Shown here: one piece after another, positions 10,071 through 31,993 of the stretch
Layout: each line of letters opens with the position of its first letter
Numbering within the stretch: the stretch's first letter is position 1
Source: Planctopirus limnophila DSM 3776
Lineage (GTDB): Bacteria; Planctomycetota; Planctomycetia; Planctomycetales; Planctomycetaceae
Direction of reading: 5' to 3'
Length of the DNA stretch: 32,000 nucleotides
NCBI RefSeq assembly: GCF_000092105.1
Contig: NC_014148.1
Location: forward strand, 2,370,001-2,402,000
Program-made: the position numbers and the translations under genes
The notes under the pieces: generated by a model
What the model was told of the DNA's origin: nothing
Database searches by the model: none
Seen by the model: the letters and a program-made list of their open reading frames with translations, nothing else

Positions 10071-10096
10071 AACTTGAATGAACATGCAGAACGTTT

Positions 10097-10894
10097 TTAT
10101 GGTGAGATCATTTGCCAGAGGATGGCCGTCATCCCCATGAGCGCACAATAGATGGCGAAGTATCCGAGGCGATTGGCCTGAATCATTCGGAGCAGGAATT
10201 CGAGTGAAAGCACACCGACAAGAAAGCTGACGACTATCCCGGTGGTTAACAGATCCCAGCGAACGGGAACGTTGCTATCGAGGAGAACTTCTTTCAATTT
10301 TAAAGTCCCCGCACCGCCAATAGCAATGATGGCCAGCAGAAACGAAAAGCGAGCCGCCGAAGTTCGATCCATCCCCGCAATCAGCCCGCCGCAGATCGTG
10401 CTCCCGGCACGAGAGATTCCTGGGAAAATGGCAGCAAAGCCTTGAAACAAGCCCACAATCAGCGCGACCGGAAAAGGGAGATTCGACAGATCAAACCGGC
10501 AGCGTTCAACCTGCTGAGCGACCAGCAAAAGGATTGAAGTCATAATCAGACAAAATCCGACGGTCATTCGATTCGAGAAGTATTCCGTACGAAAATCGCC
10601 CAGAAAAACTCCCGCCAGACCAGCAGGTATTGACCCGATGAATAGTAATGCCAGTAGTCTCGGCTGAAACAGCATACGAAGCAGGTCGTGGCGGTAAACC
10701 ACGACAATCGAGCCCAGCGTCCCCACATGCAGTGCGATATCCAGCGTGATGTCATCCCAGGCAAAGGCCGGGGTGATTCCCATTTGAGCAATGGCATGCT
10801 TGGCCAGAACGAGATGCCCCGAGGAACTGACTGGTAGAAATTCGGCAATCCCCTGCAGGACTGCCAGAAGTATCACTTGAATATACTCCGACAC
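10097..10894 (-). CDS. uppP: Undecaprenyl-diphosphate phosphatase (UppP/BacA)
   Basis: 265-aa polytopic membrane protein. It has the hallmark N-terminal UppP motif LQGIAEFLPVSSSGHLVL and the PGISRAGSTI(C)GG motif. GTG start at 10894. It is convergent with the giant gene across a 26-nt gap. Confidence 0.93.
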   Translation of the reverse strand: MSEYIQVILLAVLQGIAEFLPVSSSGHLVLAKHAIAQMGITPAFAWDDITLDIALHVGTLGSIVVVYRHDLLRMLFQPRLLALLFIGSIPAGLAGVFLGDFRTEYFSNRMTVGFCLIMTSILLLVAQQVERCRFDLSNLPFPVALIVGLFQGFAAIFPGISRAGSTICGGLIAGMDRTSAARFSFLLAIIAIGGAGTLKLKEVLLDSNVPVRWDLLTTGIVVSFLVGVLSLEFLLRMIQANRLGYFAIYCALMGMTAILWQMISP

Positions 10895-11125
10895 TCTTGG
10901 CTCCCGTTGACCTGAAGAACTCTGAACGCTATGACGCTTTCAGTAAAGATCCGTCGTTAAGTGGTTCCTGTAGAACTGGTACAGAAACCTTGCAGAATCA
11001 CTAACAGTGCGAGATCATGCCGCAGGAGAGACTTATCCGGGATTGCTGATCACAGGTCGAGAGCAAAAAGAATTCTGAAGAGTGTGAATCCGTGCGGCAA
11101 TTCCATTGGCAGGGAGGCTGAAACA

Positions 11126-11440
11126 GTGAGCGATCAACCCTCAGAATTGCGCGGTTCACCAACTGCACAGACGATGGCCCACTGGCTCGCGCCGCTTCTC
11201 AAAAAGTGGCTCCCTCATCTGGTAGCGGCACAACTGATTCTGCTGCTCTTCACCAAAATTGCAGGGATCGTGGCAGTTGTCTGCTGGTTATGCGAACTCA
11301 TGCCTGTGGTATGGGGATTGGCTGGACTGCTGATCGTGCTGGTCATCAGTACGGGAAGCCTGTTCTTTGCGATTGTATTGAGCCTGGCGATGCTGGAGAT
11401 TCTGCGGAGTGATTCTGCAGGCCGAGGCACATCTGCCTGA
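11126..11440 (+). CDS. Small hypothetical membrane protein (~104 aa)
   Basis: The track ORF starts at GTG 10961, but its first ~55 codons are Arg/Cys-rich and unconvincing. GTG at 11126 is preceded by AGGGAGG about 8 nt upstream (11111-11117). An alternative ATG lies at 11174. The C-terminal two thirds is hydrophobic (LVAAQLILLLFTKIAGIVAVVCWL, VVWGLAGLLIVLVISTGSLFFAIVLSLAML). No homology recognised. Confidence 0.4.
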   Translation: MSDQPSELRGSPTAQTMAHWLAPLLKKWLPHLVAAQLILLLFTKIAGIVAVVCWLCELMPVVWGLAGLLIVLVISTGSLFFAIVLSLAMLEILRSDSAGRGTSA

Positions 11441-11499
11441 GAAGGCCAGCATCCTGACACGCGAGTTTTGACAGTCACCTGACAAACTCTCAGAGCTGG

Positions 11500-12795
11500 C
11501 TAAAGCGGGACAGGAAGCATGAGCAGCGGGTGTTCAAAGAGCACCTGACGACCATTCACACCAATCGCAGGTGCAAAGAAGAGCAGAAACACATAAACAC
11601 TGAGGGCAGCCAGCAGCAGGAGTGACCAGAGCCAGCGCCATAAAATGAAGGCCGGCTTTTCGAGCCGCATTGATCGTGAGTAAGCGAGCCCCAGGAGAAT
11701 TCTCGCTGGATAAACAGTGACGATAAAGATCAGCGAGAACATCCACAGCAGATCACCCGGGGGGGCAAACGTTTTGAAAAGATAGAGCGGTAAGGAAAGT
11801 GCATAACCGAGAACCATGGCTAATGACCAGCACATGGGTGTACGAGCAAAGAGCCTGCGGGCAGCCTGGAGTTGAAACATGGAGCGCCAGTGACGTTCCA
11901 CTGCAAGTCGGCACTGCAGTAAAGGGAGCCAAGACAAAACGATCACGAGAAGCACACCACCGATCAGTGTCAGCAAGACCTGACCTGGCTGCTGACGATC
12001 ATTGAGCGCAGCGAACATCACTGTGGGTATCAACAGCCAGAGACCCGTTCCGAGGAGTGCCGTAAATCCAGTGCGCCACTGTTGGCCCAGTTGCATGGCA
12101 GAGAAAAATTCTCGAATGGCTGAGGATGATCGCGCCCAGTGATCCCGCGAAAAGGCCCGAGTGATCAACCATACAAAATTCTTGACTGGTCGAAAAAAAG
12201 TGACGATATGCCCGCCCCGAGCAATGGCCAGGAGAGCGTGGATGGTGAGGGTGACGGTCAGTACGCGCAACGCGAATGAGAAGACTCGATCTTTCTGACC
12301 ACCAGGTGCGATCAGATGGGCATCTGCAGCGACATCGGAAAGAATGACCAGTGGCAGAAGACAGAGCGAAAGGCCCAGAACAATCATGCCAAACCGCGGA
12401 GCGATGGCCATGAGTGGAAGCGCATAGCGGAGCTTTCCAGTCCGTGCGACACGACCTTCAGCTTCCAGGAGATACCCCAGCGCAAAGACATTCACAATTG
12501 GAATCGCGGCGAGGATCGAGAGCATTAGCAGCAGGCTGGTCAGTCCAAACATCAGCCGCATCAACCACATCAGGCAACGAATCGGGTGCCGCCATGGGAC
12601 AGGAAATGGTTCCCAATCGTGAAAACTAAAGATTTCTTGCTGAGGCGAGAAATCCTGAATGACAAGCGAAGCGTGGCTAACTGTCTCTAAGTCTGCTGGA
12701 TCGGGAGTATCTTTGTTCTGGACGGAACATTCGTCGTCGGGACGGAGTGCTCTGTTGGCAGCCTTTATCGTTGTGGTGGCTCCAGAAGTGGCCAT
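11500..12795 (-). CDS. Polytopic integral membrane protein, unknown function (possibly DUF4013-like; not verified)
   Basis: 431-aa ORF with an ATG at 12795. Many hydrophobic helices follow a ~70-aa polar N-terminus. The segment IPIVNVFALGYLLEAEGRVARTG resembles DUF4013-type proteins from memory only. No catalytic motif. Confidence 0.7.
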   Translation of the reverse strand: MATSGATTTIKAANRALRPDDECSVQNKDTPDPADLETVSHASLVIQDFSPQQEIFSFHDWEPFPVPWRHPIRCLMWLMRLMFGLTSLLLMLSILAAIPIVNVFALGYLLEAEGRVARTGKLRYALPLMAIAPRFGMIVLGLSLCLLPLVILSDVAADAHLIAPGGQKDRVFSFALRVLTVTLTIHALLAIARGGHIVTFFRPVKNFVWLITRAFSRDHWARSSSAIREFFSAMQLGQQWRTGFTALLGTGLWLLIPTVMFAALNDRQQPGQVLLTLIGGVLLVIVLSWLPLLQCRLAVERHWRSMFQLQAARRLFARTPMCWSLAMVLGYALSLPLYLFKTFAPPGDLLWMFSLIFIVTVYPARILLGLAYSRSMRLEKPAFILWRWLWSLLLLAALSVYVFLLFFAPAIGVNGRQVLFEHPLLMLPVPL

Positions 12796-13045: not shown

Positions 13046-14734
13046 ATGTCGGGAAAAGTGAGCATGAACACTTCAACCATCGGCACTTCGACAAAGAGGG
13101 CAGAACCATTGCCACGGATCGGAGCACTGAAACTCGTCCTTCCTCTATTCCTGACGACGGCCGGTGTGATCAGTCTCTTCGCCCTGTTGGCACAGATGGG
13201 ACTGGAAGCAGACGGGCAGATGTCGGCGAAGCTCCCGCCAGATTTGCAGAGCTGGAAGGTGAGCGCTGCTGCCGTCGACCAGATTTGGGGCACCTCCAAA
13301 ACTTTGAGTCAAGCGGAACGGGCCGACGATTTGACGATTCTCCGCCGTCTGCATCTGGCACTGGTGGGGACTGTTCCTTCACTGGAAGAGATTCGAGCTT
13401 TTGAGGCCATGGAAAGCCAGGATCGAATCGCCCAATGGACGAATCATCTGCTGATGGATCCGCGTGTAGGTGATTATCTGGCCCAGCGACTCAGCAAAGT
13501 GTTTGTTGGCATCGAAGACGGGCAGTTCATCGTCTTTCGTCGAGATCGATTGAACCAGTGGCTGGCGAATGAGATTCTCGACGATCGACCCTACGACAAA
13601 ATTGTGCAGCAGATGGTCTCCGAGAAAGGGTTGTGGACAGGTCGGCCCGCCGGGAACTTTATCACAGCCGCAGTGACGGGTGAGGAAGTCGATGAAAACA
13701 AACTGGCAGGACGCTCCGCCCGGGCTTTTCTCGGGCAAAGGATGGATTGTGCTCAATGCCACGATCATTTTTTTGCCCAATGGAAACAACACGACTTTGA
13801 GGGACTGGCGGCGTTTTATGCTCCCGTACGGATCTCAGCAGTCGGCCTTGAAGATCAAAAAGACTTTCAATATCAGGTAGATGACTCCAAAGCCGAAGGT
13901 GGCAAACGAACTGTCGATCTCCGGGTTCCCTTTGGTGAGGAGTGGCTGCCTGCACAAGGAACCGAACGTCAGAAACTGGCTTATTGGATCACCCATGAGG
14001 AGAACCGCAGGTTCGACCGGGCGATTGTGAATCGCATGTGGGGCTTGATGTTTGGTAAGCCACTTGTTGAGCCAGTGGATGATCTGCCTGATCCACCCGT
14101 TGAGAGACAAAGTGATCCGCTCGATGTCCTGGCCGATGAATTTCGAACTCATGGCCGATCGTTGCACTGGCTCATTCAAGTCATCGTGCAAACGAAAGCT
14201 TTCCAGCAGGAATCGAAGCATCCCAGTGCCGAAAATGGTGAGAAATTCGACGTAGCGTCGGAGAACTGGGCGATGTATCCACTCACCAGGCTTCGCCCGG
14301 AGCAGATTATTGGCAACATGCTGCAGGCCTGGTCACTCCAGACCATTGATCAGAACTCACATGTCTTCGTGAGGCTGTTCCGCCTGTTTCGGGAGAGAGA
14401 CTTTCTCAAAGAATATGGTGACACGGGCGAAGAGGAACTGGCACTCTTTACGGGGACGATTCCGCAGGCCTTGCTCAGAATGAATGGCGAGTTTTCCCGC
14501 CAGCTCAGCGAGGCCACACCTCTGAGTGCTGCTGGCAGGCTGGCGAGTCTTTCGAATGATCGTGAGGAACTGGTTACCGGGGTTTTTCTGGCATGTCTGA
14601 CAAGGCGGCCCACAGCCGAAGAACTTCAACTGATTGAAGCGATGTGCCAGGCTCACCCGGTTTCAAATGCAACGCTTGCCGAAGATCTGTACTGGACGCT
14701 GTTCAATTCTCCTGAGTTTTCCTGGAATCACTGA
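13046..14734 (+). CDS. DUF1549/DUF1553 (PSD1-type) domain protein, N-terminally membrane-anchored
   Basis: DUF1549-like region DDLTILRRLHLALVGTVPSLEEIRAFEA...LLMDPRVGDYLAQRLSKVF. DUF1553-type Cys/His motif RAFLGQRMDCAQCHDHFFAQWKQHDFEGLAAFY. Typical C-terminal ending LYWTLFNSPEFSWNH. N-terminal hydrophobic anchor LKLVLPLFLTTAGVISLFALLA. ATG at 13046, with an alternative at 13064. Confidence 0.9.
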   Translation: MSGKVSMNTSTIGTSTKRAEPLPRIGALKLVLPLFLTTAGVISLFALLAQMGLEADGQMSAKLPPDLQSWKVSAAAVDQIWGTSKTLSQAERADDLTILRRLHLALVGTVPSLEEIRAFEAMESQDRIAQWTNHLLMDPRVGDYLAQRLSKVFVGIEDGQFIVFRRDRLNQWLANEILDDRPYDKIVQQMVSEKGLWTGRPAGNFITAAVTGEEVDENKLAGRSARAFLGQRMDCAQCHDHFFAQWKQHDFEGLAAFYAPVRISAVGLEDQKDFQYQVDDSKAEGGKRTVDLRVPFGEEWLPAQGTERQKLAYWITHEENRRFDRAIVNRMWGLMFGKPLVEPVDDLPDPPVERQSDPLDVLADEFRTHGRSLHWLIQVIVQTKAFQQESKHPSAENGEKFDVASENWAMYPLTRLRPEQIIGNMLQAWSLQTIDQNSHVFVRLFRLFRERDFLKEYGDTGEEELALFTGTIPQALLRMNGEFSRQLSEATPLSAAGRLASLSNDREELVTGVFLACLTRRPTAEELQLIEAMCQAHPVSNATLAEDLYWTLFNSPEFSWNH

Positions 14735-14814
14735 TCATTTGCCACCTGCGAAAAGATTCCTCGTGCTGGTAACAAATCCCGGCCTTGAACGACGAATCTC
14801 AAAAGGGCTTGAAG

Positions 14815-16083
14815 ATGTCTGATTCACTCATCAACTGCTGCTGGAATCGACGGGAACTGCTCCAACTACTGACAACGGGAGTCGTTGCGTTCTCAACCAG
14901 CCAGCTCTCTGCACGTGCGGCAGAAGAGCGAGGGCCCCAGCGCAGCAAATCATTGATCACCCTCTGGCTCGCGGGTGGCCCCAGCCAGTTAGAAACCTGG
15001 GATCCTCATCCTGGGACCAGGATCGGTGGCCCGACCAAAGCCATCGACACATCAATTCAAGGGACACAGATCTGTGAGTGGTATCCGCAGACGGCCGAGA
15101 TCTTGAATTCGTTTTGCGTCATCCGATCTGTTGTTTCGAAGGAAGGTGATCACGAGCGAGGTACGTATGTCGTTCGCACTGGCTATCGACCGGAACCGAC
15201 TGTGGTGCATCCTTCACTCGGAAGTATCGTCTATCACGAACTCCCGCGGGGAGGCCTGGAAATCCCCGGGCATGTGAGCCTGGGTGATGGGCAGTTTGCG
15301 ACCAGAGGCGGCTATCTAGGGGAAGAAAGCACGGCTTTTCGCGTTTTCGAGCCTGGGCGAAATCTGACGAACCTTGAAGCTCCTGTCGATCCTGAGCGTC
15401 ATCAGCGGCGACTGGAAACGCTCGGGCAACTTTCAGAGGGATTTCTCAACGGACGGCGCTATCCGATTGCCAATTCGCTGCATCAGAAGACCATCGATTC
15501 TGCTCTCAAAATGATGACTTCGGAACAGCTCAAGGCCTTTTCGATCTCCGATGAACCCGCCGCTGTGTTGGCGGCCTACGGGGATCATCCTTTTGGGCGA
15601 GGTTGTCTTGTGGCCCGGAGATTGATTGAGATGGGCGTTCGCGCGGTCGATGTGACCTTGAACGGCTTTGACACTCACGCGAACAACTTTGGCTTGTCCA
15701 AAGGGAGAGCGGAAATTCTCGATCCGGCACTATCGACTCTGGTGACAGACCTCAAGTCGCGCGATCTGTGGGATTCGACAGTTGTCCTTGTCTGTGGAGA
15801 GTTCGGGCGGACTCCTCAAATCAATCCTTTGGATGGCCGCGACCATTGGCCCCATGGATTTTCTATTCTGCTGGGTGGCGGCGGACTGGCGTCTGGACGG
15901 GTCATCGGCGCGACCGATCCACAAGGGGTCAAATCACCAGAAAATCCCATCGAAATTCCGCAGATTATGGCCAGTATTCTGCAAGTGTTAGGAATCGACT
16001 TCCAAAAGGAGATTTTCACTCCCATTGGACGGCCGATCCGGCTCACCAGCGGCCAGCCACTGGCGGCACTTTTCAAGGCATAA
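14815..16083 (+). CDS. DUF1501 domain protein (sulfatase-like fold), Tat-type signal
   Basis: The track ORF starts at TTG 14785, but the ATG at 14815 (MSDSLINCCWNRRELLQLLTTG...) gives a twin-Arg-like leader. DUF1501 hallmarks are present: WLAGGPSQLETWDPHPG and GEFGRTPQINPLDGRDHWPHGFSILLGGGGLASGRVIGATD. It sits immediately downstream of its usual DUF1549/1553 partner. Confidence 0.9.
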   Translation: MSDSLINCCWNRRELLQLLTTGVVAFSTSQLSARAAEERGPQRSKSLITLWLAGGPSQLETWDPHPGTRIGGPTKAIDTSIQGTQICEWYPQTAEILNSFCVIRSVVSKEGDHERGTYVVRTGYRPEPTVVHPSLGSIVYHELPRGGLEIPGHVSLGDGQFATRGGYLGEESTAFRVFEPGRNLTNLEAPVDPERHQRRLETLGQLSEGFLNGRRYPIANSLHQKTIDSALKMMTSEQLKAFSISDEPAAVLAAYGDHPFGRGCLVARRLIEMGVRAVDVTLNGFDTHANNFGLSKGRAEILDPALSTLVTDLKSRDLWDSTVVLVCGEFGRTPQINPLDGRDHWPHGFSILLGGGGLASGRVIGATDPQGVKSPENPIEIPQIMASILQVLGIDFQKEIFTPIGRPIRLTSGQPLAALFKA

Positions 16084-22761: not shown

Positions 22762-23961
22762 TCATTGAGCCGATGATCGCGTGCCGTGGGGAGAGCCGGC
22801 AATCGGCACGCCTTTGGGAAGCGGGCGAGCGGCCACGAGAAATCCCTGCTCATGGACGAACTTTCGAATCCGCTGGAACTCACTGAAACTGTCGGGGTAG
22901 ACCCAGAACGTGAGTGTGGCATCTTCGGGAGTCGTCAGTAAAGAACGGTAGAACCGGGAACCGGTCTGCATGGCTTCTTCGACCGATTCTGTCTGCAGAT
23001 CGCGCGCAGGTTGAATCAGCCACTGAGTCACACTGATACTCACCAGGCCGGGCCCCATCTCCAGTTCACTGAGAACTCCACCATTCTCACGCTGCACGGT
23101 GTAACGCATGAGAAAGCCACCGACCGGCCCCACTTCTCCTTGAGCTTTTGGCGTTTTAATCAACCAGTCTTTGCGACTTTCAATCTGCCGCTTGACCTGT
23201 TCGACCAGCGCATCAATCGGAACCTCGGCTACTCTGCCTCGTTCAAAACGAAAGTGTCGCTCGCTCCCTTTAACCACACGCCCGACGGGAGTCACGCGAT
23301 GTTCAATCTTCTCGACATTTGGAGGAGCGAAATCGGTCTCAATCACCCTGGCTCTCAAAGTGGCCAGTTTCTGTCGCGCTGCCAGAAGCTGTTCATGCGC
23401 CTGAGTCAGTCGATCCTGTTTGGCGCGGAGCAGTTCGCGTCCCGCCTGGAGTTCCGAAGCCATCACTCTGGCCTGTGATTGAGCACGCAGCAGCGACTGT
23501 TCCTGCTCGGCAACCTGTGCTGTCAGGCTCTCGATTTCCGTTTCCAGCCCAGTTGTACTGAGAGCTGCCTGCTCGGCTTCTTCGCGCAAAGCTTGATTGG
23601 GACTGAGCGAAATGATTTTGACGGGGCGAGCGGCTTCGACAACGAGCTTTTCCGCCGGAATTTCTTTGGGTGGAATTTCGACAGGTGGAGCATCTGGCTT
23701 CAAATCAACAGAAACAGGTTCATCAGTGGGGAGTTCGCCCAGTGGCTGTATGGGTTCACTGACGGTGAGGGCAGGGGCTGTATGGTCGGTAGCTGTCGCC
23801 ATAACGGGATTATCAGAAGATTTGGTAACAACCGGCATGCGTGAGACTTTGAGTCCCGCCAGGACAATCAGGATTACGAGAATCCCGACGATGTTGGCAA
23901 TCACATCGAGAAATGAATCGGAACCAAACTCGGCTTCTTTCGGGGCGGGACGCTGGCTCAT
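22762..23961 (-). CDS. ExbD/TolR-like single-pass protein with Pro-rich spacer and coiled coil (B2 subunit candidate; retains the membrane Asp)
   Basis: 399 aa. The ATG (23961-23959) overlaps the upstream gene's TGA by 4 nt (ATGA). The N-terminal anchor SFLDVIANIVGILVILIVLAG carries Asp19 (GAT, nt 23905-23907) at the position of the ExbD/TolR/MotB proton-relay Asp. Pro-rich region at aa ~65-105. Heptad-rich helix at aa ~122-207. The C-terminal segment ATLTFWVYPDSFSEFQRIRKFVHEQGFLVAARPL resembles the end of the ExbD periplasmic domain. Confidence 0.75.
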   Translation of the reverse strand: MSQRPAPKEAEFGSDSFLDVIANIVGILVILIVLAGLKVSRMPVVTKSSDNPVMATATDHTAPALTVSEPIQPLGELPTDEPVSVDLKPDAPPVEIPPKEIPAEKLVVEAARPVKIISLSPNQALREEAEQAALSTTGLETEIESLTAQVAEQEQSLLRAQSQARVMASELQAGRELLRAKQDRLTQAHEQLLAARQKLATLRARVIETDFAPPNVEKIEHRVTPVGRVVKGSERHFRFERGRVAEVPIDALVEQVKRQIESRKDWLIKTPKAQGEVGPVGGFLMRYTVQRENGGVLSELEMGPGLVSISVTQWLIQPARDLQTESVEEAMQTGSRFYRSLLTTPEDATLTFWVYPDSFSEFQRIRKFVHEQGFLVAARPLPKGVPIAGSPHGTRSSAQ

Positions 23962-26162
23962 GGAGTCCCTTTGGCTGATGGAGGCGTACTAAGAATGAAC
24001 TCACGACTGGTCTTCAGACCGGCGCGATTGATGGAGGGATTGAGTCGTTCGTAATGCTGGATGCCCCCCGGGCCCACCTGGAACTGAATTTTTGGAACCC
24101 AGTAAAAGCCCTTGGGTGGACGCCCCCAGTCGCGAGCGAGTTCATCGACGGCGAGCAGCAGCATTCGCAGAGTGTCGGTCTTGCTTTCACCTGCTCCCAC
24201 TCGAATGAGAAATTTGTCATCCACCACGAGACGATCAGCAGACACCACGACGTTGAGAGGACGCTCCATGCCAATTGTGGCGGAAAGATCCGAGACTCCC
24301 CAGCGGCGACGCTGCAAATTTTCGACTGGCATTCCGCGTGCCCGTCGCCTGTTATCTTCTGATTCTCCAAACTGCTGGAGTGGCGAGCTGACATCTTCGG
24401 GTCGGATTTCCTGCGGGCCATCCTTCTTCTTCGAACCTTCAGTACTGTTCAACAGCCTGGCAAAATCTTCATCAGCCTCTTCAATCGCTTTTTCCCGTTG
24501 AGTGATTTCTTCGTCAAGACTGGCAACTGATGAACCACCCTGTTTCTGTGTGCGGAATTGTTGCCCGCCAAACTTCTCGACTTTCTGCCAGCTTTCTTCA
24601 CCAACAGGAACATCGGTAAAGCCTTCAGACCTTTTGGCTGTGCTCGACTGAGCCCCGGGCTTTGCAGGAATTGCACGACTGTCATGACCTGGTTTCGCTG
24701 GCGTATTTGCAGGGTGCTGCGCTGCTGCCGATGAAGATGCTTCCGTGAGTTTTTCTGCCTCTGCAAATTCTCCGGGAGATGTGCCGTTCATCGGTTCACC
24801 CGGACGACCTGGAGAGCCTGCTGGAACATTCGTGGTGACCGCGTTGTTACCAGAGTTTGGCCCTCGTGAGAATTGATGAGAACCCGTCGTTCCCAGTGAT
24901 GGATCGAGGTGCGCGCCCGAGCCACCACGTCCCGGGCGTGGATCAATGCTGCCAATGGCACGACCAGTCGCTGCGGCTGAATGCTGACGCGATGCACCTG
25001 CGGGGACTTCTCGACCGCTCCCTGCGAACTCATCATCGGGAGCCACTGCGAACTCTCCACCGCTTTTTCCCATCGCCAATCCACCGGCGGCAGCCACCGC
25101 CTCTCGCTCCTTAATGAGCCCACGGACAGCCGCTTCACAAAGGCGTTTTGCTTCTTCATCGACAGTCGGCATGTGAAGTTCGGTTTCTTCACCAATCAGT
25201 TCGTAACCAAACGGTTGCCTCATGGTCGAAAGCATTTGCGATGCAGCGTAGTAAGCGACGGTTCCACTGGGCCGAATCAGGAGTAAGACATAAGGCTCGC
25301 CTAAGGGCTCATTCGGGAAGCGTTGCCGGTGTGGACTGGCCCAATAGCGGGTCAGAGCAGTTGCCCCAGCGAGAAGAGGATTGAACTTTTCATTGAAGCC
25401 CACCAGATCTCCTGCGGTGATCGTGACATCTTCGGGAACAAAACGCAGGCCTTGTGCATGACATTCGATAATGATGGGTCGCCTCGTCGTGCCGGTCTGG
25501 GCATCGAAGGGGACAATCATAAACTTGCTGCCGCCGGTGCCTGGTTGTGTGCTGAGACCTGCCAGACGACTCTCAAGAGTTCGAATCTGTTTGTTGACCA
25601 GTTCGATTTCAGCTTCGTCCGGTGTCTGTTGGAGGAGTTTCGCCTGCGAAAAGAGGTCATTCTGTTCTGCTTTCAGCCGAGCCAGTTCTGCTTCTGTTCG
25701 CTGACGGGCATTGAGAAGGTGCTCCAGTTGTTCCTGCCGGTTGGTTGCAGTTCTGGAGAGCTGCTGCTCCTGAGACCGCAGCTCTTGAATTCGACTCTGA
25801 AGCTGATCGATGCGTGTGCGATCAATCACCACTTCCGGCTCAGGGGGAACAGGATCGACTGGTTTCAGCTCAATGGATTGACTTGCCAACAGGGGAACTG
25901 GAGCAGTGGCGGGTTCCGTTGAAACGGGAGGTGGCACTTGCTGCTGTGGTGGCGCAATCGATTCCGCTGGAAGACTCAAGACTGGCTTATGTTCGGGAGG
26001 ATGGACTTGCTCGATGGCTGCAGCCGCGGCAATTGTTTTCTGGCGAATCATCCGCGTGGTCACGAGCAGCAGGAAAATGAGTGCGCCCATGGCGCAGACA
26101 AGAACCGCAAGGAACGGAAAGAGCTGTACTCCTTCGCCGGTTCTGGTTTGCCTTTTTGCCAT
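23958..26162 (-). CDS. Elongated ExbD/TolR-like single-pass protein with two ExbD-like domains, coiled coil and a long disordered region (B1 subunit candidate; Asp replaced by Ala)
   Basis: 734 aa. ATG at 26162 is preceded by GAGGTGAGG. The anchor PFLAVLVCAMGALIFLLLV aligns without gaps to the next gene's anchor but has Ala19 (GCG, nt 26106-26108). Pro-rich region at aa ~54-112. Coiled coil at aa ~113-203. ExbD-like segment 1 at aa ~212-323 (RPIIIECHAQGLRFVPEDVTI...PYVLLLIRPSGTVAYYAASQMLSTMRQPFGYELIGEE). Gly/Ser/Pro/Ala-rich low-complexity region at aa ~355-610. ExbD-like segment 2 at aa ~630-725 (PLNVVVSADRLVVDDKFLI...VPKIQFQVGPGGIQHYERLNPSINRAGL). Confidence 0.75.
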   Translation of the reverse strand: MAKRQTRTGEGVQLFPFLAVLVCAMGALIFLLLVTTRMIRQKTIAAAAAIEQVHPPEHKPVLSLPAESIAPPQQQVPPPVSTEPATAPVPLLASQSIELKPVDPVPPEPEVVIDRTRIDQLQSRIQELRSQEQQLSRTATNRQEQLEHLLNARQRTEAELARLKAEQNDLFSQAKLLQQTPDEAEIELVNKQIRTLESRLAGLSTQPGTGGSKFMIVPFDAQTGTTRRPIIIECHAQGLRFVPEDVTITAGDLVGFNEKFNPLLAGATALTRYWASPHRQRFPNEPLGEPYVLLLIRPSGTVAYYAASQMLSTMRQPFGYELIGEETELHMPTVDEEAKRLCEAAVRGLIKEREAVAAAGGLAMGKSGGEFAVAPDDEFAGSGREVPAGASRQHSAAATGRAIGSIDPRPGRGGSGAHLDPSLGTTGSHQFSRGPNSGNNAVTTNVPAGSPGRPGEPMNGTSPGEFAEAEKLTEASSSAAAQHPANTPAKPGHDSRAIPAKPGAQSSTAKRSEGFTDVPVGEESWQKVEKFGGQQFRTQKQGGSSVASLDEEITQREKAIEEADEDFARLLNSTEGSKKKDGPQEIRPEDVSSPLQQFGESEDNRRRARGMPVENLQRRRWGVSDLSATIGMERPLNVVVSADRLVVDDKFLIRVGAGESKTDTLRMLLLAVDELARDWGRPPKGFYWVPKIQFQVGPGGIQHYERLNPSINRAGLKTSREFILSTPPSAKGTP

Positions 26163-26221
26163 GCCTCACCTCATGAATCCACGGAATCAGTACTCTCTCG
26201 ATACCAGCAATCTCCCTTGCT

Positions 26222-27673
26222 TCACGCAGCGCGGTGATGTGCCCTTGCTGAGAGCAGGTGAACTGCCGCATTCAGATTGAGTAACGTTTCCTCAAGCGTT
26301 TGCGTCTGCCTCAGCGTGGCCAGATTCTCAGCGAGCAGACTTTCCGCCTGAATCAATTGCTGGCTGCTACCAACAAGACTGCTGATCTGAATTGTCTGTC
26401 GCTCGAGCGCTTCAGCCTGCGCTAATGAGTGAGTGCTGACATCCTGAAGAGATCCAGCCAAAGTACTGACATTCTGTTGGACGGCATCGATCGCTCCGGC
26501 CAGCGCGGAGGTAAATTGATGTTGGATGCTCGATTGAGCCTCGCTGGCCGACTTCCAGGACTGATGCATCAACTCCAATTGGCTGCGGACCGATTCTGCC
26601 AGTTGCTGCTGCATCAGGCATAGGTTTTCTGCAAATGAAGCCTGTAGGGCCTCGACTTCACGCCGGGATTCGGCCTGAGTCTGCTGCAGGAGTTGCTGCT
26701 GAGTCGAAAGAGCTTCATGCATGGCAGCACTTAAAGCACCAGCCAGACTGTGCCCCTGTTCGGTAGCCAGCAAGGCCCACTGTTCACGACATGTCGCGAC
26801 AGTATTGTTCCAGGCTTCCAGATGCTGACGGGTCAAGACATCGGCCTGATCCAGGAAGCGGCGGGCCACATCGTGTTCAGCAGCCAGCAGAGGTGAGACT
26901 TCGGAAGACTTTTCGGCTGGGAAGAATCCGAGCAGGCGATGGACGGTAAAGTCCTCAATCTGATCAAGGACATTCGATTCACCCCGCTCGATCGCAAACG
27001 TGGCAAAGACCAGAATCATCGACAGAGCCAGAGAGAGAGCGGTCGTATCAAAAGCAACTGCCAGACCTGAAGTGACTTCGTTGAGTGAACTCTCCAGTTG
27101 CTCGGGGGTCACGTTGGCAATGGCCATTGTGATCCCAATAACTGTCCCCAGAAAGCCCAGAATCGGAATTGCCCAGGTAATTGTGCGTAGTGCGGCGTAA
27201 CTGCTATGCAGTCGAGCGATCGCCGTATCTGCCAGATAACTCAGGTGTGATTCGAGATCAGCGGCAGTGTGCCTGGAAATCACATAGCCGCAAACAGTCT
27301 CAATGCGGCGAAAAAGTTCGGTCGACTGATATCGTCGGCCGGTCAGTTGGATGTGTTCTCGCAGGAGCTGAGCCACCACAGATGAATCTGATTGAGGGTC
27401 AAATTTAATCCCATCCAGAATATTTTCTGACAAGACTCCCCGTTCGGAGGGCCAGTTGAGTAATTTTCGCCCGAGAATCGCCAGGCCAATAAAAAATAGC
27501 GCTACAGTACAATGTTCAATCCAGTGAGAATTGAAGTAGCGATACTTAAAATTCTCATCGAGGGGGATCGATGGTAAAACAAGGTAAAAGGCAACTGCTG
27601 CCAAACCACCGATCACCCAGGAAAAATCGAGCTTTGATTTGTGCGCAACTATTTTTGCAGATTGATTTTGCAT
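26222..27673 (-). CDS. MotA/TolQ/ExbB-family proton-channel protein with ~255-aa C-terminal helical tail (A subunit candidate)
   Basis: 483 aa with an ATG at 27673. Four hydrophobic helices, with a ~90-aa loop between TM2 and TM3. TM3/TM4 carry the PF01618-type signature (WAIPILGFLGTVIGITMAI ... GLAVAFDTTALSLALSMILVF, nt ~26990-27187), including the conserved Thr positions. Residues ~229-483 are Q/L/A/S/E-rich with heptad-like spacing. Confidence 0.85.
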   Translation of the reverse strand: MQNQSAKIVAHKSKLDFSWVIGGLAAVAFYLVLPSIPLDENFKYRYFNSHWIEHCTVALFFIGLAILGRKLLNWPSERGVLSENILDGIKFDPQSDSSVVAQLLREHIQLTGRRYQSTELFRRIETVCGYVISRHTAADLESHLSYLADTAIARLHSSYAALRTITWAIPILGFLGTVIGITMAIANVTPEQLESSLNEVTSGLAVAFDTTALSLALSMILVFATFAIERGESNVLDQIEDFTVHRLLGFFPAEKSSEVSPLLAAEHDVARRFLDQADVLTRQHLEAWNNTVATCREQWALLATEQGHSLAGALSAAMHEALSTQQQLLQQTQAESRREVEALQASFAENLCLMQQQLAESVRSQLELMHQSWKSASEAQSSIQHQFTSALAGAIDAVQQNVSTLAGSLQDVSTHSLAQAEALERQTIQISSLVGSSQQLIQAESLLAENLATLRQTQTLEETLLNLNAAVHLLSARAHHRAA

Positions 27674-27740
27674 CTAATTTTTCATCCTGCAGTTTTGACC
27701 GGGAGTGACGTGAGTAAAATCGACTCACTCATCAAGTCGT

Positions 27741-27759
27741 ATTTGATCGAGAATCAAAT
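27741..27759. promoter_or_regulatory. Perfect 7-5-7 inverted repeat ATTTGAT-CGAGA-ATCAAAT in a divergent intergenic region (candidate operator)
   Basis: Read directly from the sequence. It lies 68-86 nt upstream of the MotA-like ATG (27673) and ~250 nt upstream of the 1327-aa ORF. It sits in an AT-richer stretch of the 336-nt intergenic region. Confidence 0.3.
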
Positions 27760-28009
27760 CTTCCATCGTAAGGTGCCAACGTAGCGTCAGCGCTGTGCAA
27801 TCACTCCTCATGACAATCGTTAAAATCGTCAAACTCGGCCAGACAAGTTGAATCGAAGAGAGGGGGATGATTGAAGATTCCGACTTCCGTTCAATTGCCT
27901 CGACCGAGTGGAATTGTCTATTCTCTCAAATAGAAGTCGTGAACAGGCATGACCTTGCATTCACAGATGGCAGTGGACTGACGCACTCCGCCCGTCAGGG
28001 ATCGACGCA

Positions 28010-31000
28010 TTGAAATCATCTCCGGACAATCGATCTTTGGAAGTTTCTGCACTGACCCGCGAGATCGCAGGCTATCTCAACTTGTCGGGAGGTCGTCGTG
28101 ATACGCAGTTTCTGATGAGATTGAACCAGTTGGCACGACTGGCTCCTCAGTGGAAACTCCAGCAGAAACTGCTCAACGAAACTCTTGAAGCCTGCCATCG
28201 GGAAAATGTCACAGGCTTTGAGAATATTGAACAAGGCCAGAGTGCCATCAGCCTGGCATTCGACCACGTCTTCCCAGCTTATGTGAATCACCACCAGGAT
28301 TTGCTGGGACATCTGGAACCTGAAACTCTCCAACTGCCATTTTTTCTTGGCAGAATCTTTGAATCGATTCTGGAGCAGGGGGGGCCCTGGAACGAAGAAC
28401 CAAGGATTGTCGATGGCTCACTGCGCATCCTGAATGACTTCCTCGGCTATCGGCCAATTGCCTTACTCGAAAATCAGCGCAAGCTCGAACCCTATGCCAA
28501 CGAGCGATTCTGCCCGCTGCCACTTTACATCAAAGGGGCAGGTGTCGGTGAATCTCCCTACCGGGAGATCATCGAGAAGTCGCTCGAACTCCTTTCGAAC
28601 ACGACTCCCGAAATTCTGACAGATGCCTGGTTTTATCTCCAGAATCTCGACGAACTCTCTCTCGATCCACGGGCACACGATCATCTTCATCCAGCCAACA
28701 AGCGAACAAATTACCTGTTCGGCGAGTGGGATCCCCATCTGATCGACCTGCACGGCATGTACCGCCGGTTCGTCGTGAGAAAAGTCATTCTGGACGCTCT
28801 ACTTAAGTGGATGGGCGAGCAGAAAAAAGTTCCTCATGATGAACTTGTTTATGATGCAGCCGCCGTCCTGGCTGGAACCATTCTTATGGCTTCGGCCATC
28901 AGTGGTGCAGGGCCGGAAACACATGATTCGACGATTACGTTAACATCTCTGCTGCCACGTGTGGCCAGACAGCGAGACCGCTTCTATGCGACGCTTCTGG
29001 AAAACGCCGAAGGAGCCAGAGCCAAGCGGCTTCAAAAACAGGCCAAGGTCACGCAACAGCCTTTTGGGCACGTGCGACAGCATCTCAATATGTATCTGGC
29101 CGAATATGGAGCCCAGCAGGTTCAAAGACGGCATCTGGCTTATCTGTTTGCACGCATGGGCTATGCGGATGAAGCCCGGCGACAGGCAGGTATCATCCCT
29201 GCGGCTGCAGCTCGCTTTGATTGTGAAATCCAGTGGCGGTTTACGTTTTTCCGCAAAGAAATCGAAAAGGGGGATCTCGATCAGGCTTGCCGATTGATCG
29301 ATGAGATTGAAGGTTTCCTGCATCGCGGCATCCGCTGTGGAGCCATTGTTGATCCGTGGAATATCCTGGGCTTTCAGGGGCACTTCCCGCTGTTTTCTTC
29401 CCGAGAAGACAGTGTGCCTGATCAACGTGTTGAACAACTGTTAAATCTGGTCGAATTAATTTTGGAAGCCTATGCCATTGCCCTGCAGGATGCAGCAGTC
29501 CGCGGCAGGACAGATCGCTACAACGAACTGAAGCGAAAATTCTCACGCTTTGCCGAATGGTGGGATCGATTCGGGACACCGACTGTCGCTGATCTTCCCC
29601 TGGTTCAAGGGCAGGAATCTTACGATTCGGCACTGCATGTCGCCGAAACACTTTCCGAATGGCGATCGGCCGGTGAGGCTGCCGGCGATGTGCAATTCTG
29701 GCGGCAGCATGTCGATCGATTTGAATCATCCAAAGCGTATGCCCAAGTCGTTGAATCTCTCCTGGATCGTAAAGACACAGTCGCCTCGCTGGGCCTATTG
29801 ATTCAATGGCTGAGTCAGGTGGAAGAAGTGGGACTCGAGTCGGGTCCCCATTCACTGTTCGGATTGATGGTCGACTGGCTCGAATTAGCACTCGATTCCA
29901 ATTCACAACCGCCAGTACCACAGTGGAAGAACATTTTACGCATGTTCGATTCTGTGGAAGCCAATGCGGGTGAATTATGGACAATTCCCCGACTCTCGAC
30001 AGTGCTTCAAGGTGGGATTCAGCAGGAACATGAAACCACCTCTGGCGAAGACGACGCGAATGATGGCGACAGCACATTATTCGGTGCGGCATACGATGGC
30101 ATGGTCTTTCGCGATACTGCAAACGACGGCCTGGAAAGCGACACGGCAGACAGTGGTGGCAGTGCCGAACCGGGTGAATTCGAAGTGATCGAGACCTTGC
30201 TGGAACCGAGGCTCAAATTTGCCCGCATGATGACGCAAATGTGGCAGATCGCTGCCAGCGAATGCACCATGGCGGAGGCCACACAGAAGACTGCTTCGTC
30301 TGAAGAAACCAGTCGTCCCGCAGCATTTTTCCCGGCAGATCACGTGGAAGAATGGCTTAAACAATGCGTCGAACTCCAGCAGCAACTCAAGCTGCTGATG
30401 GAAGATCTTGAAAAGCATGGCGTGATCGAATCGAGCGGCGATCATGAAGCGAACATCGAGTTCGACATGCAGATCCAGACCAAGTTCTATCTGCTGCAAT
30501 CGATTATCTACATCCAGATCAGCGCTCAGGTCGCACGCTGGTGTCTCGAAGCCTTGCTGGCCGAAACCACAGGAAAAATCGTCGCCAGCGACCACGAAGA
30601 ACAAATGATCGTGGAGTCGATTTTAGGAATCTTGAGACGCGATCCTGCGGAAGTTCGCAAGCTTTTGCCTGCACTATTGAAGGAATTGCAGAAACGCCCA
30701 CTCCTTTATATTCCATTGGAGCACGATGGCGATCCCGGCGAGATGCTCAATGCACGAATCGCGCAGGCGATTATCCGCTTCATGTTGTGCCATTTGCCAA
30801 GGCTCGGTCTGCTCAAGGAAACCTGGCATCTGCTGCAGGCTGCTCATGAAATGGAACGCTCATCCCGGCCTGCCGGTATGGCTGTGACAGAGTTCGACCG
30901 ATTGTTCCGCATCGCCCTCCGGAATTCGCTTGAAAGTATTATCCATGCCTCCCGTCAGTGGCAGAGAGGCAAATTCGCGGATGAAGATCTGATCGAAATT

Positions 31001-31993
31001 GTCGGCTCGACTGTCGAGCATTATCTCGATCAATGGCTCGATCACAGTTCCACCATGCGGCTCTCGACTGTTGAATCGCTCAAGATGGATGGTGTCTGGG
31101 ATCAGACTCGAGAGTTCATCAAGAAGTATGGCAATGAGTTTTTGAATGCTCGCGTGCTGACACTTGGGAACCTCCGCACAATTCTGCACCAGGGGATCGA
31201 AAAATATCTCGCTTATCTGGAGGAATCTGAAGACCCACTCCATCCCATCCCGCTTTTGGAAGATATCCGCGGAGGGAAGATCAGTACGCGAGAAGCTTCT
31301 GAAACGTTGCGGCTGATCTATCAGGTGATTGTTGATCGCTTTGATCGATTTCTGGAATACAACTCCACCACAACTCAATCCGACTATGGGCAACTGTTTT
31401 TCTCGCTGCTCGACTTCTTAAGGTTAGAAACTTCCTACGAACGAGATGCCTGGAATCTCCTCCCTGTCGCGATTGCTCACGAAGTCTTGACCAGGCAGGG
31501 TAGGCAGGAAGCTGCAGAGATCTGGGAGGAAGTCTTTACAGTCAAAACCGAAGATATGTCCGAGCGACATCTGGCCGAACTGAAAAAACTCGAACGGCAA
31601 TATGGCATGCGTTTGCCATCGGTTACGAGTCATCTCCAGGAGCGATTCGTTAAACCACTGGCTGTTAACAACATGCTGGCACTGATCCCAAGGGCTGTTG
31701 AAGAAGCTAAAAAGACGCCGATGGAAACCATTGCCATCCGATCGCTGGTGGCGCAGATCGAAGAGTATCTCAAGAGTTCGCTGGGCTCAGGGCTCGATGT
31801 GCCCCATTGGCTCAGGGCACTGGAAGAAGAACTCAATGAGGGGATCAGCCATTCAGGATGGACGGGTGCCGATGCAGAGCCGGAACTCAATCTCCTGGGA
31901 CTGAACTTTACTCTTCGAGAAATGCGTCAGCAGCTGAAAACATGGAAAGCGCCGCCGGGTGGCCGCAAGAAAAATGATTCAGGAAATGCCTGA
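28010..31993 (+). CDS. Large (about 1290-1327 aa) cytoplasmic, predicted all-alpha protein of unknown function
   Basis: Uninterrupted 4 kb ORF ending in TGA at 31991-31993. The track start at 28010 is a TTG, and the first in-frame ATG is at 28115, so the start is uncertain. I saw no TM helix, signal peptide, Walker A or nuclease/helicase motif on reading. There is an acidic low-complexity linker at about nt 30000-30170. It is divergently oriented to the MotA-like operon. Confidence 0.8.
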   Translation: MKSSPDNRSLEVSALTREIAGYLNLSGGRRDTQFLMRLNQLARLAPQWKLQQKLLNETLEACHRENVTGFENIEQGQSAISLAFDHVFPAYVNHHQDLLGHLEPETLQLPFFLGRIFESILEQGGPWNEEPRIVDGSLRILNDFLGYRPIALLENQRKLEPYANERFCPLPLYIKGAGVGESPYREIIEKSLELLSNTTPEILTDAWFYLQNLDELSLDPRAHDHLHPANKRTNYLFGEWDPHLIDLHGMYRRFVVRKVILDALLKWMGEQKKVPHDELVYDAAAVLAGTILMASAISGAGPETHDSTITLTSLLPRVARQRDRFYATLLENAEGARAKRLQKQAKVTQQPFGHVRQHLNMYLAEYGAQQVQRRHLAYLFARMGYADEARRQAGIIPAAAARFDCEIQWRFTFFRKEIEKGDLDQACRLIDEIEGFLHRGIRCGAIVDPWNILGFQGHFPLFSSREDSVPDQRVEQLLNLVELILEAYAIALQDAAVRGRTDRYNELKRKFSRFAEWWDRFGTPTVADLPLVQGQESYDSALHVAETLSEWRSAGEAAGDVQFWRQHVDRFESSKAYAQVVESLLDRKDTVASLGLLIQWLSQVEEVGLESGPHSLFGLMVDWLELALDSNSQPPVPQWKNILRMFDSVEANAGELWTIPRLSTVLQGGIQQEHETTSGEDDANDGDSTLFGAAYDGMVFRDTANDGLESDTADSGGSAEPGEFEVIETLLEPRLKFARMMTQMWQIAASECTMAEATQKTASSEETSRPAAFFPADHVEEWLKQCVELQQQLKLLMEDLEKHGVIESSGDHEANIEFDMQIQTKFYLLQSIIYIQISAQVARWCLEALLAETTGKIVASDHEEQMIVESILGILRRDPAEVRKLLPALLKELQKRPLLYIPLEHDGDPGEMLNARIAQAIIRFMLCHLPRLGLLKETWHLLQAAHEMERSSRPAGMAVTEFDRLFRIALRNSLESIIHASRQWQRGKFADEDLIEIVGSTVEHYLDQWLDHSSTMRLSTVESLKMDGVWDQTREFIKKYGNEFLNARVLTLGNLRTILHQGIEKYLAYLEESEDPLHPIPLLEDIRGGKISTREASETLRLIYQVIVDRFDRFLEYNSTTTQSDYGQLFFSLLDFLRLETSYERDAWNLLPVAIAHEVLTRQGRQEAAEIWEEVFTVKTEDMSERHLAELKKLERQYGMRLPSVTSHLQERFVKPLAVNNMLALIPRAVEEAKKTPMETIAIRSLVAQIEEYLKSSLGSGLDVPHWLRALEEELNEGISHSGWTGADAEPELNLLGLNFTLREMRQQLKTWKAPPGGRKKNDSGNA

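Follow-up and report, generated by a model that had tools for sequence, protein, structure and literature searches.

Three co-directional genes on the minus strand of Planctopirus limnophila DSM 3776, referred to here as the trio, encode a membrane protein of the MotA/TolQ/ExbB family and two single-pass partners. They lie within a 32,000-nt stretch of DNA that was analysed as a whole and is hereafter called the window; all positions are counted on that stretch. The genes and the proteins that they encode are as follows (aa, amino acids; TM, transmembrane).

26222..27673 (-): gene 1 (Plim_1834), 483 aa; A-type (MotA/TolQ/ExbB family) channel subunit with a ZorA-like tail
23958..26162 (-): gene 2 (Plim_1833), 734 aa; B-like subunit without a TM Asp
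22762..23961 (-): gene 3 (Plim_1832), 399 aa; B-like subunit with an invariant TM Asp

The window proteins matched 100% to ADG67664.1 (Plim_1834, annotated as "MotA/TolQ/ExbB proton channel"), ADG67663.1 (Plim_1833, hypothetical) and ADG67662.1 (Plim_1832, hypothetical). Both the list of open reading frames (ORFs) and the junction sequence agree with a preliminary description of this DNA, which had reported three minus-strand genes of 483, 734 and 399 aa with a 59-nt gap and an ATGA overlap between them. The gap separates genes 1 and 2 and includes a GAGGTGAGG ribosome-binding site; a search for a terminator-like site within these 59 nt found none. Genes 2 and 3 share 4 nt at 23958-23961, read as ...ccATGAgcc.... 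Base composition of the trio equals that of the flanks. Since homologs number in the hundreds (>1147 for gene 1, >370 for gene 2 and >840 for gene 3), the three are real conserved genes rather than chance ORFs.

Plim_1834 is a channel subunit of the MotA/TolQ/ExbB family, and its nearest solved relative is ZorA. Its match to PF01618 (MotA_ExbB) spans residues 132-238 with E=5.9e-13 and 49.1 bits, exceeding the curated cutoff of 22.9, and gene 1 orthologs of a subtype with rearranged gene order scored 36.5 and 42.3 bits against the same model. Three features of the gene matter for what follows.

26960..27280 (-): MotA_ExbB core of gene 1 (residues 132-238), the Pfam region; includes TM3 (168-186) and TM4 (203-228)
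27047..27049 (-): codon of Asp209 in TM4 of gene 1 (AFDTT); Asn in the subtype whose gene 2 retains Asp
26225..26890 (-): helical tail of gene 1 on the cytoplasmic side (residues 262-483), ~33 nm long if helical throughout; conserved ~45-residue terminal motif

Alignment of 25 orthologs revealed an almost invariant TM3-TM4 motif, TITWAVPILGFLGTVIGITMAIAN...GLAVAFDTTALSLALS, in which T177 (LGFLGTV), Asp209 and T210/T211 (AFDTTAL) are invariant; by inference from solved homologs (PMC11890865), these conserved Thr residues would face a partner axle. When a profile of the gene 1 family was compared with the PDB, the top match was 8vvn_C, the type I ZorA of Shewanella (E=2.1e-5), in an alignment extending from TM3 into the tail, and the PADLOC ZorA2 models gave 1.5e-8 and 2e-7. 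By the NCBIfam ZorA_2 model gene 1 is not a member (21.8 bits, cutoff 100), and the NCBIfam TolQ, ExbB, MotA and ZorA models were all weak on gene 1 and well under their cutoffs. A single-sequence PDB search with an A subunit of the rearranged subtype, made for the residue equivalent to D209 in ExbB/TolQ, gave spurious matches only, and the ExbB/TolQ counterpart of D209 is therefore left unclaimed.

Over its C-terminal ~220 residues, gene 1 displays a hydrophobic repeat of 3.66 residues (power 72 vs. a shuffle 95th percentile of 49), a spacing that implies a right-handed bundle; for the tail of ZorA, a pentameric coiled coil of right-handed geometry has been reported (PMC11946911). Among orthologs, the middle part of the gene 1 tail varies, with indels of 11, 18, 4+7 and 58 residues, and the last ~45 residues, forming the tip LAENLE.VR.VESLE.TLLNLNAAVNLL..KAA, are strongly conserved (25 orthologs). 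The combination of variable middle and conserved tip suggests a spacer of loosely fixed length that ends in a binding tip. All three properties ascribed to gene 1 beforehand have thus held: the MotA/TolQ/ExbB signature by its score in the Pfam comparison that had been proposed, the four-TM topology by hydrophobic segments at residues 20-38, 54-72, 168-186 and 210-228, and the long helical tail by the significance of its hydrophobic periodicity. Two contigs of metagenome-assembled genomes (MAGs) carry the gene 1 ortholog in pieces, as three or four overlapping ORFs (L049 6108-7823, L082 6299-7909), which are either frameshifted pseudogenes or assembly errors.

Genes 2 and 3 were modelled with AlphaFold2 (AF2) from 46-sequence alignments. 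In both, a short N-terminal anchor is followed by a long spacer and by globular domains, as listed here (b, strand; a, helix; pLDDT, predicted local distance difference test).

26055..26123 (-): TM anchor of gene 2 (residues 14-36; LFPFLAVLVCAMGALIFLLLV), invariant motif among orthologs
26106-26108 (-): Ala19 codon of the gene 2 anchor; 11 other loci have Asp here
25551..26003 (-): gene 2 spacer; Pro-rich 54-112, then long helices 115-177 and 183-204
25089..25478 (-): gene 2 domain D1 (residues 229-358), globular, order bbb-a-b-a-b-a; pLDDT >90
24525..25073 (-): gene 2 linker (residues 364-546), disordered, Gly/Ala/Ser-rich, ~180 residues; pLDDT 30-46
23997..24275 (-): gene 2 domain D2 (residues 630-722), globular, order bbb-a-b-a-b; pLDDT >90
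23842..23922 (-): TM anchor of gene 3 (helix 14-40; SFLDVIANIVGILVILIV); Asp19 codon 23905-23907
23329..23841 (-): gene 3 spacer; Pro-rich disordered 41-120, then 89-residue heptad coiled-coil helix 123-211
22825..23262 (-): gene 3 C-terminal alpha/beta domain (CTD; residues 234-379), pLDDT >90; conserved tail RPLP.G.PIAGSP.GS.S..Q after it

Either protein contains one hydrophobic segment, at residues 17-35 in both cases, which AF2 places within a TM helix of residues 15-53 in gene 2. Pro accounts for 29% of gene 2 residues 54-112 and for 18% of gene 3 residues 42-120. The spacer helices of gene 2 were modelled with a pLDDT of ~90, and the 123-211 helix of gene 3 has the periodicity of a classical heptad coiled coil (3.50, power 69 vs. 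a shuffle 95th percentile of 33). The Pro content confirms the Pro-rich spacers that had been noted in both proteins, and AF2 predicts long helices (115-204 and 123-211) where a coiled coil of ~85-90 aa had been described. The linker of gene 2 is unalignable and differs in length between orthologs. In gene 3, Asp19 (SFLDV) sits close to the N-terminal end of the TM segment, at a depth of four to five helix residues; F17, L18, D19, N23 and G26 of the anchor are invariant in the ortholog alignment, and an FLD/FMD motif is present in 201 of the 201 family members with a readable N-terminus.

Neither D1 nor D2 of gene 2 has a Pfam match or a PDB sequence match, and the gene 3 domain has no Pfam match and no Foldseek match at E<=1e-3. 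The gene 3 domain falls into 1108 clusters at 50% identity, the best 150 of which all have the gene 3 architecture. Homologs of gene 3 (>840) are all named hypothetical; those of gene 2 (>370) include none with a curated family match, and their source names read 'hypothetical protein'. UniRef calls the gene 2 orthologs P0514 (P. ephydatiae) and P0516 (P. hydrillae) 'IncA protein', most likely a coiled-coil-driven annotation and no sign of true kinship with chlamydial inclusion proteins. Searching the PDB with a full-length gene 3 profile brought up coiled-coil proteins only, and internal duplication among the three globular domains was considered and dropped, homology between them being undetectable (hhalign E=0.02-0.15).

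Genomic neighbourhoods were counted in 46 loci with adequate flanks. Gene 2 stands directly upstream of gene 3 in all 46, and gene 1 is found near the pair in 36 of them, upstream in 33 and downstream in 3. Conservation of the trio as neighbours across Planctomycetaceae, on which the earlier reading depended, is thereby established, with gene 1 adjacent in 36/46 loci and in two gene orders. Relatives of gene 3 were confirmed in 479 of 600 pattern matches listed, all in species-representative genomes, and hence occur in at least 479 genomes; the best 80 relatives all belong to Planctomycetaceae or to unclassified Planctomycetota MAGs. The trio is thus apparently confined to Planctomycetaceae. 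In a published survey, homologs of Plim_1832 and Plim_1834 were found in 20 and 19 of 45 Planctomycetes, respectively, and in 0 and 2 of 4655 other prokaryotes; the corresponding figures for Plim_1836, a divergently transcribed neighbour referred to here as g0, are 31 and 0 (PMC10632474). With 19 vs. 20 of 45 Planctomycetes, genes 1 and 3 share a phyletic pattern. Insertion indices of 0.08-0.16 in transposon-directed insertion site sequencing (TraDIS) mark all of Plim_1832 to Plim_1836 as non-essential (PMC10632474, Supplementary Data 2 and 6), and laboratory growth does not require the system.

The preliminary description had recognised the pattern of the ExbD periplasmic domain in genes 2 and 3, a claim sustained neither by Pfam or Foldseek nor by profile-profile comparison. 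PF02472 (ExbD; gathering score 25.4 bits) returned nothing at E<=1 on the window proteins; ExbD was not among the Pfam families reported for 46 gene 2 orthologs, and nothing matching it appeared at E<=10 in 47 cropped D1, D2 and CTD sequences. Anchor and domain profiles retrieved no ExbD, TolR, MotB or ZorB chain from the PDB at E<=10. Foldseek comparison of the gene 2 and gene 3 models with the PDB, which holds ExbD/TolR domains as targets (2pfu, 8vgc, 8p9r, 8pek, 5by4, 2jwk), produced 0 matches at E<=1e-3 and no ExbD/TolR among the best 50. Aligned by hhalign with verified ExbD/TolR sequences, the three globular domains yielded E=0.12, 0.15 and 0.35: D1 287-323 paired with ExbD 95-130, recovering the very segment that had been singled out before (E=0.12, probability 0.5%), and D2 was colinear with the whole ExbD periplasmic domain at a non-significant E=0.15. 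What D1 and D2 share is only the generic bbb-a-b-a-b element order. Because domain and fold searches found nothing, the three globular domains represent uncharacterised families at the sequence level.

Several further candidate matches were discarded. Full-length genes 2 and 3 gave only coiled-coil noise in Pfam, NCBIfam and PADLOC; anchor-only profiles hit influenza M2 and ASIC channels in the PDB by chance, and no B subunits. Foldseek matches to RNase H-like and ribosomal S11 folds (E=0.016-0.3) reflect generic bbb-a-b-a folds, so that homology was rejected (the best matches of D1 are non-significant).

The anchors, likewise described as ExbD-like, call for a divided verdict. Profiles of the window-type anchors, ranked against ~3975 planctomycete ORFs, placed ExbD at ranks 49, 55 and ~396 and TolR at ranks 274 and 27, i.e. 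at background level, whereas gene 2 orthologs that keep an Asp are ExbD-like at sub-threshold strength. These Asp-bearing anchors (FPFLDVL, FPFIDVL, FAFLDIL) have a P-F-(L/I)-D-V type context. Their profile ranked ExbD 4th and 5th and TolR 12th of ~3975, with Asp aligned on Asp, and gave E=7.7e-4 against ExbD/TolR in hhalign; the three ORFs that outranked ExbD were chance matches. For one such gene 2 ortholog (locus L026), PF02472 came top of 24,736 Pfam models, at a sub-threshold E=0.026 and 15.0 bits, the match joining residues 6-36 to model positions 3-33 and covering the TM region only. Canonical ExbD genes had been considered as an internal control in 82 loci, and none was there.

The anchors of genes 2 and 3 are paralogous to each other (hhalign probability 90%, E=1.6e-6). 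At the position aligned with gene 3 Asp19, gene 2 carries Ala in the window and in 101 relatives, and Asp in 11 loci. The state of this position goes together with that of the ring: an AFDTT ring is paired with gene 2 Ala in 42 loci, all in the order g1-g2-g3, and an AFNTT ring with gene 2 Asp in the 7 loci where both genes were readable, all in the order g2-g3-g1, with no exception on either side. If the gene 2 helix and the pore-lining helix of gene 1 touch inside the membrane, one would expect them to trade a carboxylate in this way. The anchor-to-first-domain spacers, too, behave as a pair. Over 40 loci, their length in gene 2 rises and falls with that in gene 3 (Spearman 0.72, p=2e-7, uncorrected for phylogeny), and in the window the two are nearly equal (~214 and ~217 residues), which fits a parallel heterodimeric stalk. 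Precedent for an axle of this kind comes from TolQ-like genes accompanied by heterologous pairs of 'transpore-helix' (TPH) proteins with non-ExbD periplasmic domains (PMC12204202). Most likely, then, genes 2 and 3 act as B-type axle partners of gene 1.

Taken together, we consider the trio to be probably an undescribed ion-driven inner-membrane motor of the MotA/ExbB/TolQ/ZorA (5:2) class that is restricted to Planctomycetaceae. In such a motor, five copies of Plim_1834 would form an outer ring, their C-terminal helices bundling into a right-handed cytoplasmic coiled-coil tail of ~33 nm, and one Plim_1833 helix and one Plim_1832 helix would sit inside the ring as a heterodimeric B-type axle (A5:B:B'). 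In the lineage of the window, the protonatable Asp (D19) would be supplied by Plim_1832 only, Plim_1833 contributing an Ala and the ring adding D209 next to its Thr-Thr pair. Side by side, the two B-like proteins would project into the periplasm through spacers of ~215 residues (Pro-rich segment plus a coiled coil of ~90 residues, ~13 nm), and the resulting stalk would present three globular domains in the wide planctomycetal periplasm to an envelope partner, with D2 of Plim_1833 on a further flexible tether of ~250 residues. Ion flow past D19, by protonation and deprotonation and aided or gated by the D209 ring, would turn ring and tail relative to the stalk, and membrane energy or a periplasmic signal would in this way be coupled to the envelope and possibly to the cytoplasm. 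That the trio extends structure on both sides of the membrane, as had been proposed, is very probable. More tentatively, the complex might be a housekeeping, two-sided rotary transducer with an asymmetric axle, in which D19 on Plim_1832 faces a 'dead' Plim_1833 helix and five Asp209 residues in the stator compensate.

Several observations weigh against a motor with genes 2 and 3 as its axle. No test puts gene 2 or gene 3 into the ExbD, TolR, MotB or ZorB families, and every positive ExbD signal is sub-threshold and comes from orthologs. Gene 1 is not within 10 kb of genes 2 and 3 in 10 of the 46 loci. The charge swap and the change in gene order may each be a single evolutionary event, so the 49 loci that show them are not independent; the spacer correlation shares this weakness, being uncorrected for phylogeny. 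Nor does the conserved Cys234/Cys342 pair of D1, tried and rejected as a periplasmic marker, settle the location of the domain: Cys342 is replaced in 6/46 orthologs while Cys234 is kept, and a disulfide is not obligatory.

The likeliest alternative, though we judge it unlikely, is a membrane-anchored coiled-coil scaffold built by genes 2 and 3 independently of gene 1 (cf. PilN/PilO, GspL/GspM), with gene 1 just a frequent neighbour whose own B subunit is encoded elsewhere or needless. Scaffolds commonly have this build of TM helix, coiled coil and alpha/beta domain, significant homology links genes 2 and 3 to none of the B-subunit families, and the ten loci lacking gene 1 nearby keep the pair all the same, often beside g0. 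Yet the adjacency of gene 1 survives the rearrangement of gene order, genes 1 and 3 agree in their phyletic counts, the Asp/Ala vs. Asn/Asp swap between gene 2 anchor and ring TM4 is exceptionless and the TM Asp of gene 3 is invariant. To our knowledge, moreover, all characterised rings of the MotA/ExbB family require a B partner encoded adjacently, and the operon has no further single-pass gene.

It appears somewhat less probable still that genes 2 and 3 are force transducers of the TolA/TonB type, docked outside the ring, with the true B subunit elsewhere in the genome. Like TolA and TonB, they consist of a TM helix, then a spacer that is Pro-rich and helical, and a globular domain at the C-terminus, an architecture generally known and laid out in PMC12204202, and TonB-like Pro-rich spacers were confirmed above. 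Docking by TolA and TonB is, however, defined by the SHLS/His motif (PMC12204202), and the ortholog alignments contain no conserved His in either anchor; gene 3 has a B-type Asp instead, and the Asp-type gene 2 anchors resemble ExbD/TolR, not TonB. Furthermore, no TonB or TolA C-terminal domain was among the Foldseek matches, and no ExbD-like ORF was present in ~1.3 Mb of flanking DNA from the 82 loci.

Lastly, defence systems are typically patchy and mobile in distribution, and a new Zorya-like anti-phage type, in which a tailed ZorA-like sensor signals to a cytoplasmic effector such as g0, is very improbable: ZorA is the nearest solved relative and PADLOC ZorA models are the best defence-library matches, the tail is long, right-handed and tipped by a conserved motif, a large unannotated protein (g0) is encoded next door and the genes are non-essential, but no ZorB-type OmpA-like domain, ZorC, ZorD, ZorE, nuclease or helicase domain was found, g0 is without any PADLOC or Pfam match and occurs in more Planctomycetes (31/45) than the trio (19-20), base composition is the same as in the flanks, and the genes occupy a conserved position in at least 479 species genomes from a single family and show identities that suggest vertical descent.

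Having preferred an ion-driven motor over these alternatives, we compared it with the described members of the 5:2 class. Family tests and literature both support the earlier statement that the trio does not fit the Mot, Exb, Tol, Agl, Gld or Zor systems as described. Pfam, NCBIfam and PADLOC searches of the neighbours also confirmed that the window is without TonB, TolA/B/Pal, OmpA-like, flagellar, gliding and Zorya effector genes. A description of the trio by system, organism or locus tag was not found in the searchable literature, and reviews and surveys of the 5:2 class (PMC9389320; PMC12505986) do not list it. The closest described analogues are ZorAB, for the tail, and the predicted TolQ-like genes with heterologous TPH-vWA pairs (PMC12204202).

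ZorAB (5:2, PDB 8VVN, 8VVI) has an A subunit of the same Pfam family, ZorA being the best solved match of gene 1, and resembles the trio in its long helical tail, matched in gene 1 by right-handed (~3.67-residue) periodicity and a conserved tip, and in the Asp near the N-terminal end of the partner TM helix (ZorB D24/D21, gene 3 D19). In contrast to ZorAB, the gene 1 tail comprises ~220 residues vs. ~460-500 in ZorA, two different partners replace the ZorB homodimer, one of them is without Asp and the ring has an extra Asp, and the trio has been kept throughout one bacterial family instead of having a patchy distribution. Genes 2 and 3 have no OmpA/ZorB match in Pfam, NCBIfam or PADLOC and no such fold in the Foldseek lists, and neither g0 nor the other neighbours match Zorya effectors (ZorC/ZorD, ZorE, ZorF/G) in PADLOC, Pfam or NCBIfam. 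The TPH vWA pairs, described in 2025 and predicted only, likewise consist of a TolQ/ExbB-family gene beside two different single-pass proteins, whose N-terminal helices are proposed to lie inside the pentamer and whose linkers carry non-ExbD globular periplasmic domains, with no canonical tolR or exbD gene (PMC12204202). Unlike these pairs, the trio has domains that are not vWA (no Pfam match), a long inserted coiled coil, one partner that lost its Asp and an A subunit with a ZorA-like tail, and it occurs in Planctomycetaceae only.

With ExbB-ExbD-TonB and TolQ-TolR-TolA, the trio has the A subunit family in common, as well as the P-F-(L/I)-D-V anchor of Asp-type gene 2 orthologs, and its Pro-rich and helical spacers recall TonB and TolA. 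It differs from them in that neither gene 2 nor gene 3 passes the Pfam model or the fold comparison for ExbD or has an SHLS anchor, and in that the B-like anchor itself carries spacer and head in one chain; genes for a TonB-dependent receptor, TolB or Pal are absent from the window and from the neighbourhoods of L001-L003. AglQ and AglS form a heteromeric B-type pair, and GldM is a B-type protein with a long periplasm-spanning extension (reviewed in PMC9389320). AglR-AglQ-AglS, the gliding motor of Myxococcus, and GldL-GldM, which serves type 9 secretion and gliding, are in these two respects similar to the trio, from which they are set apart by the short AglQ and AglS and by GldL not being a PF01618 protein; searches by sequence and by fold linked the trio to neither AglQ/S nor GldM, and it has no gliding or type 9 secretion system genes nearby.

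Ion-driven 5:2 motors power flagella, TonB-dependent uptake, outer-membrane maintenance, gliding, type 9 secretion and Zorya immunity, and each new member so far has shown a new use of membrane energy beyond the membrane. The trio would add a ZorA-like tailed motor that is kept along a bacterial family instead of in a mobile defence island, together with three uncharacterised periplasmic domain families on very long spacers. The loss of the essential Asp from one axle chain and the gain of an Asp by the ring would constitute a natural experiment on the number of carboxylates needed for rotation. If the asymmetric axle were true, 5:2 motors could run, or be gated, with a single axle carboxylate, and the rotating tail of the ZorA type would be an ancient signalling or mechanical device outside phage defence. 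Planctomycetes have an enlarged periplasm and bud independently of FtsZ; the envelope process served could perhaps be stalk or fibre assembly, macromolecule uptake or budding. Because P. limnophila can be manipulated genetically and none of the genes is essential (PMC10632474), deletion and point mutants are feasible and the question is directly testable.

Upstream of gene 1, on the opposite strand, lies the neighbour already mentioned.

28010..31993 (+): g0 (Plim_1836), 1327 aa, conserved, divergently transcribed

It is the divergent neighbour of the trio in 26/46 loci (57%), at 46-56% identity, and is more conserved than the trio itself (46-56% vs. 33-45% identity). No match to g0 was found in Pfam, NCBIfam, PADLOC or the PDB. 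Being a neighbour in only 57% of loci and phyletically broader than the trio (31 vs. 19-20 of 45), g0 was not accepted as its dedicated partner and is at most a facultative one. Its length is 1318 aa in GenBank and 1327 aa, with a TTG start, in RefSeq and the ORF list. At L008, L010, L012, L015, L016, L020, L023 and L069 (~3000-11200 in each), a divergent g0 adjoins genes 2 and 3, and no MotA-like gene occurs within 10 kb. Between gene 1 and g0, Plim_1835 is annotated; the divergent interval 27674-28009 (336 nt) contains only ORFs of 35-57 aa and is probably a shared promoter region and not a gene.

Elsewhere in the window, two co-directional ORFs at 79-3003 (+) and 3000-10070 (+), of 974 and 2356 aa and overlapping by 4 nt, have no Pfam match and look like an operon of giant proteins. 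Positions 10001-12000 display an AT skew of +0.20 over ~2 kb, compared with about +/-0.13 at most in the rest of the window; this stretch covers a BacA/UppP gene (10097-10894, minus strand) and two unannotated ORFs. At 13046-16083 (+), a PSCyt2/PSD1 (DUF1549/DUF1553) protein is followed by a DUF1501 protein, a recurrent planctomycetal pair.

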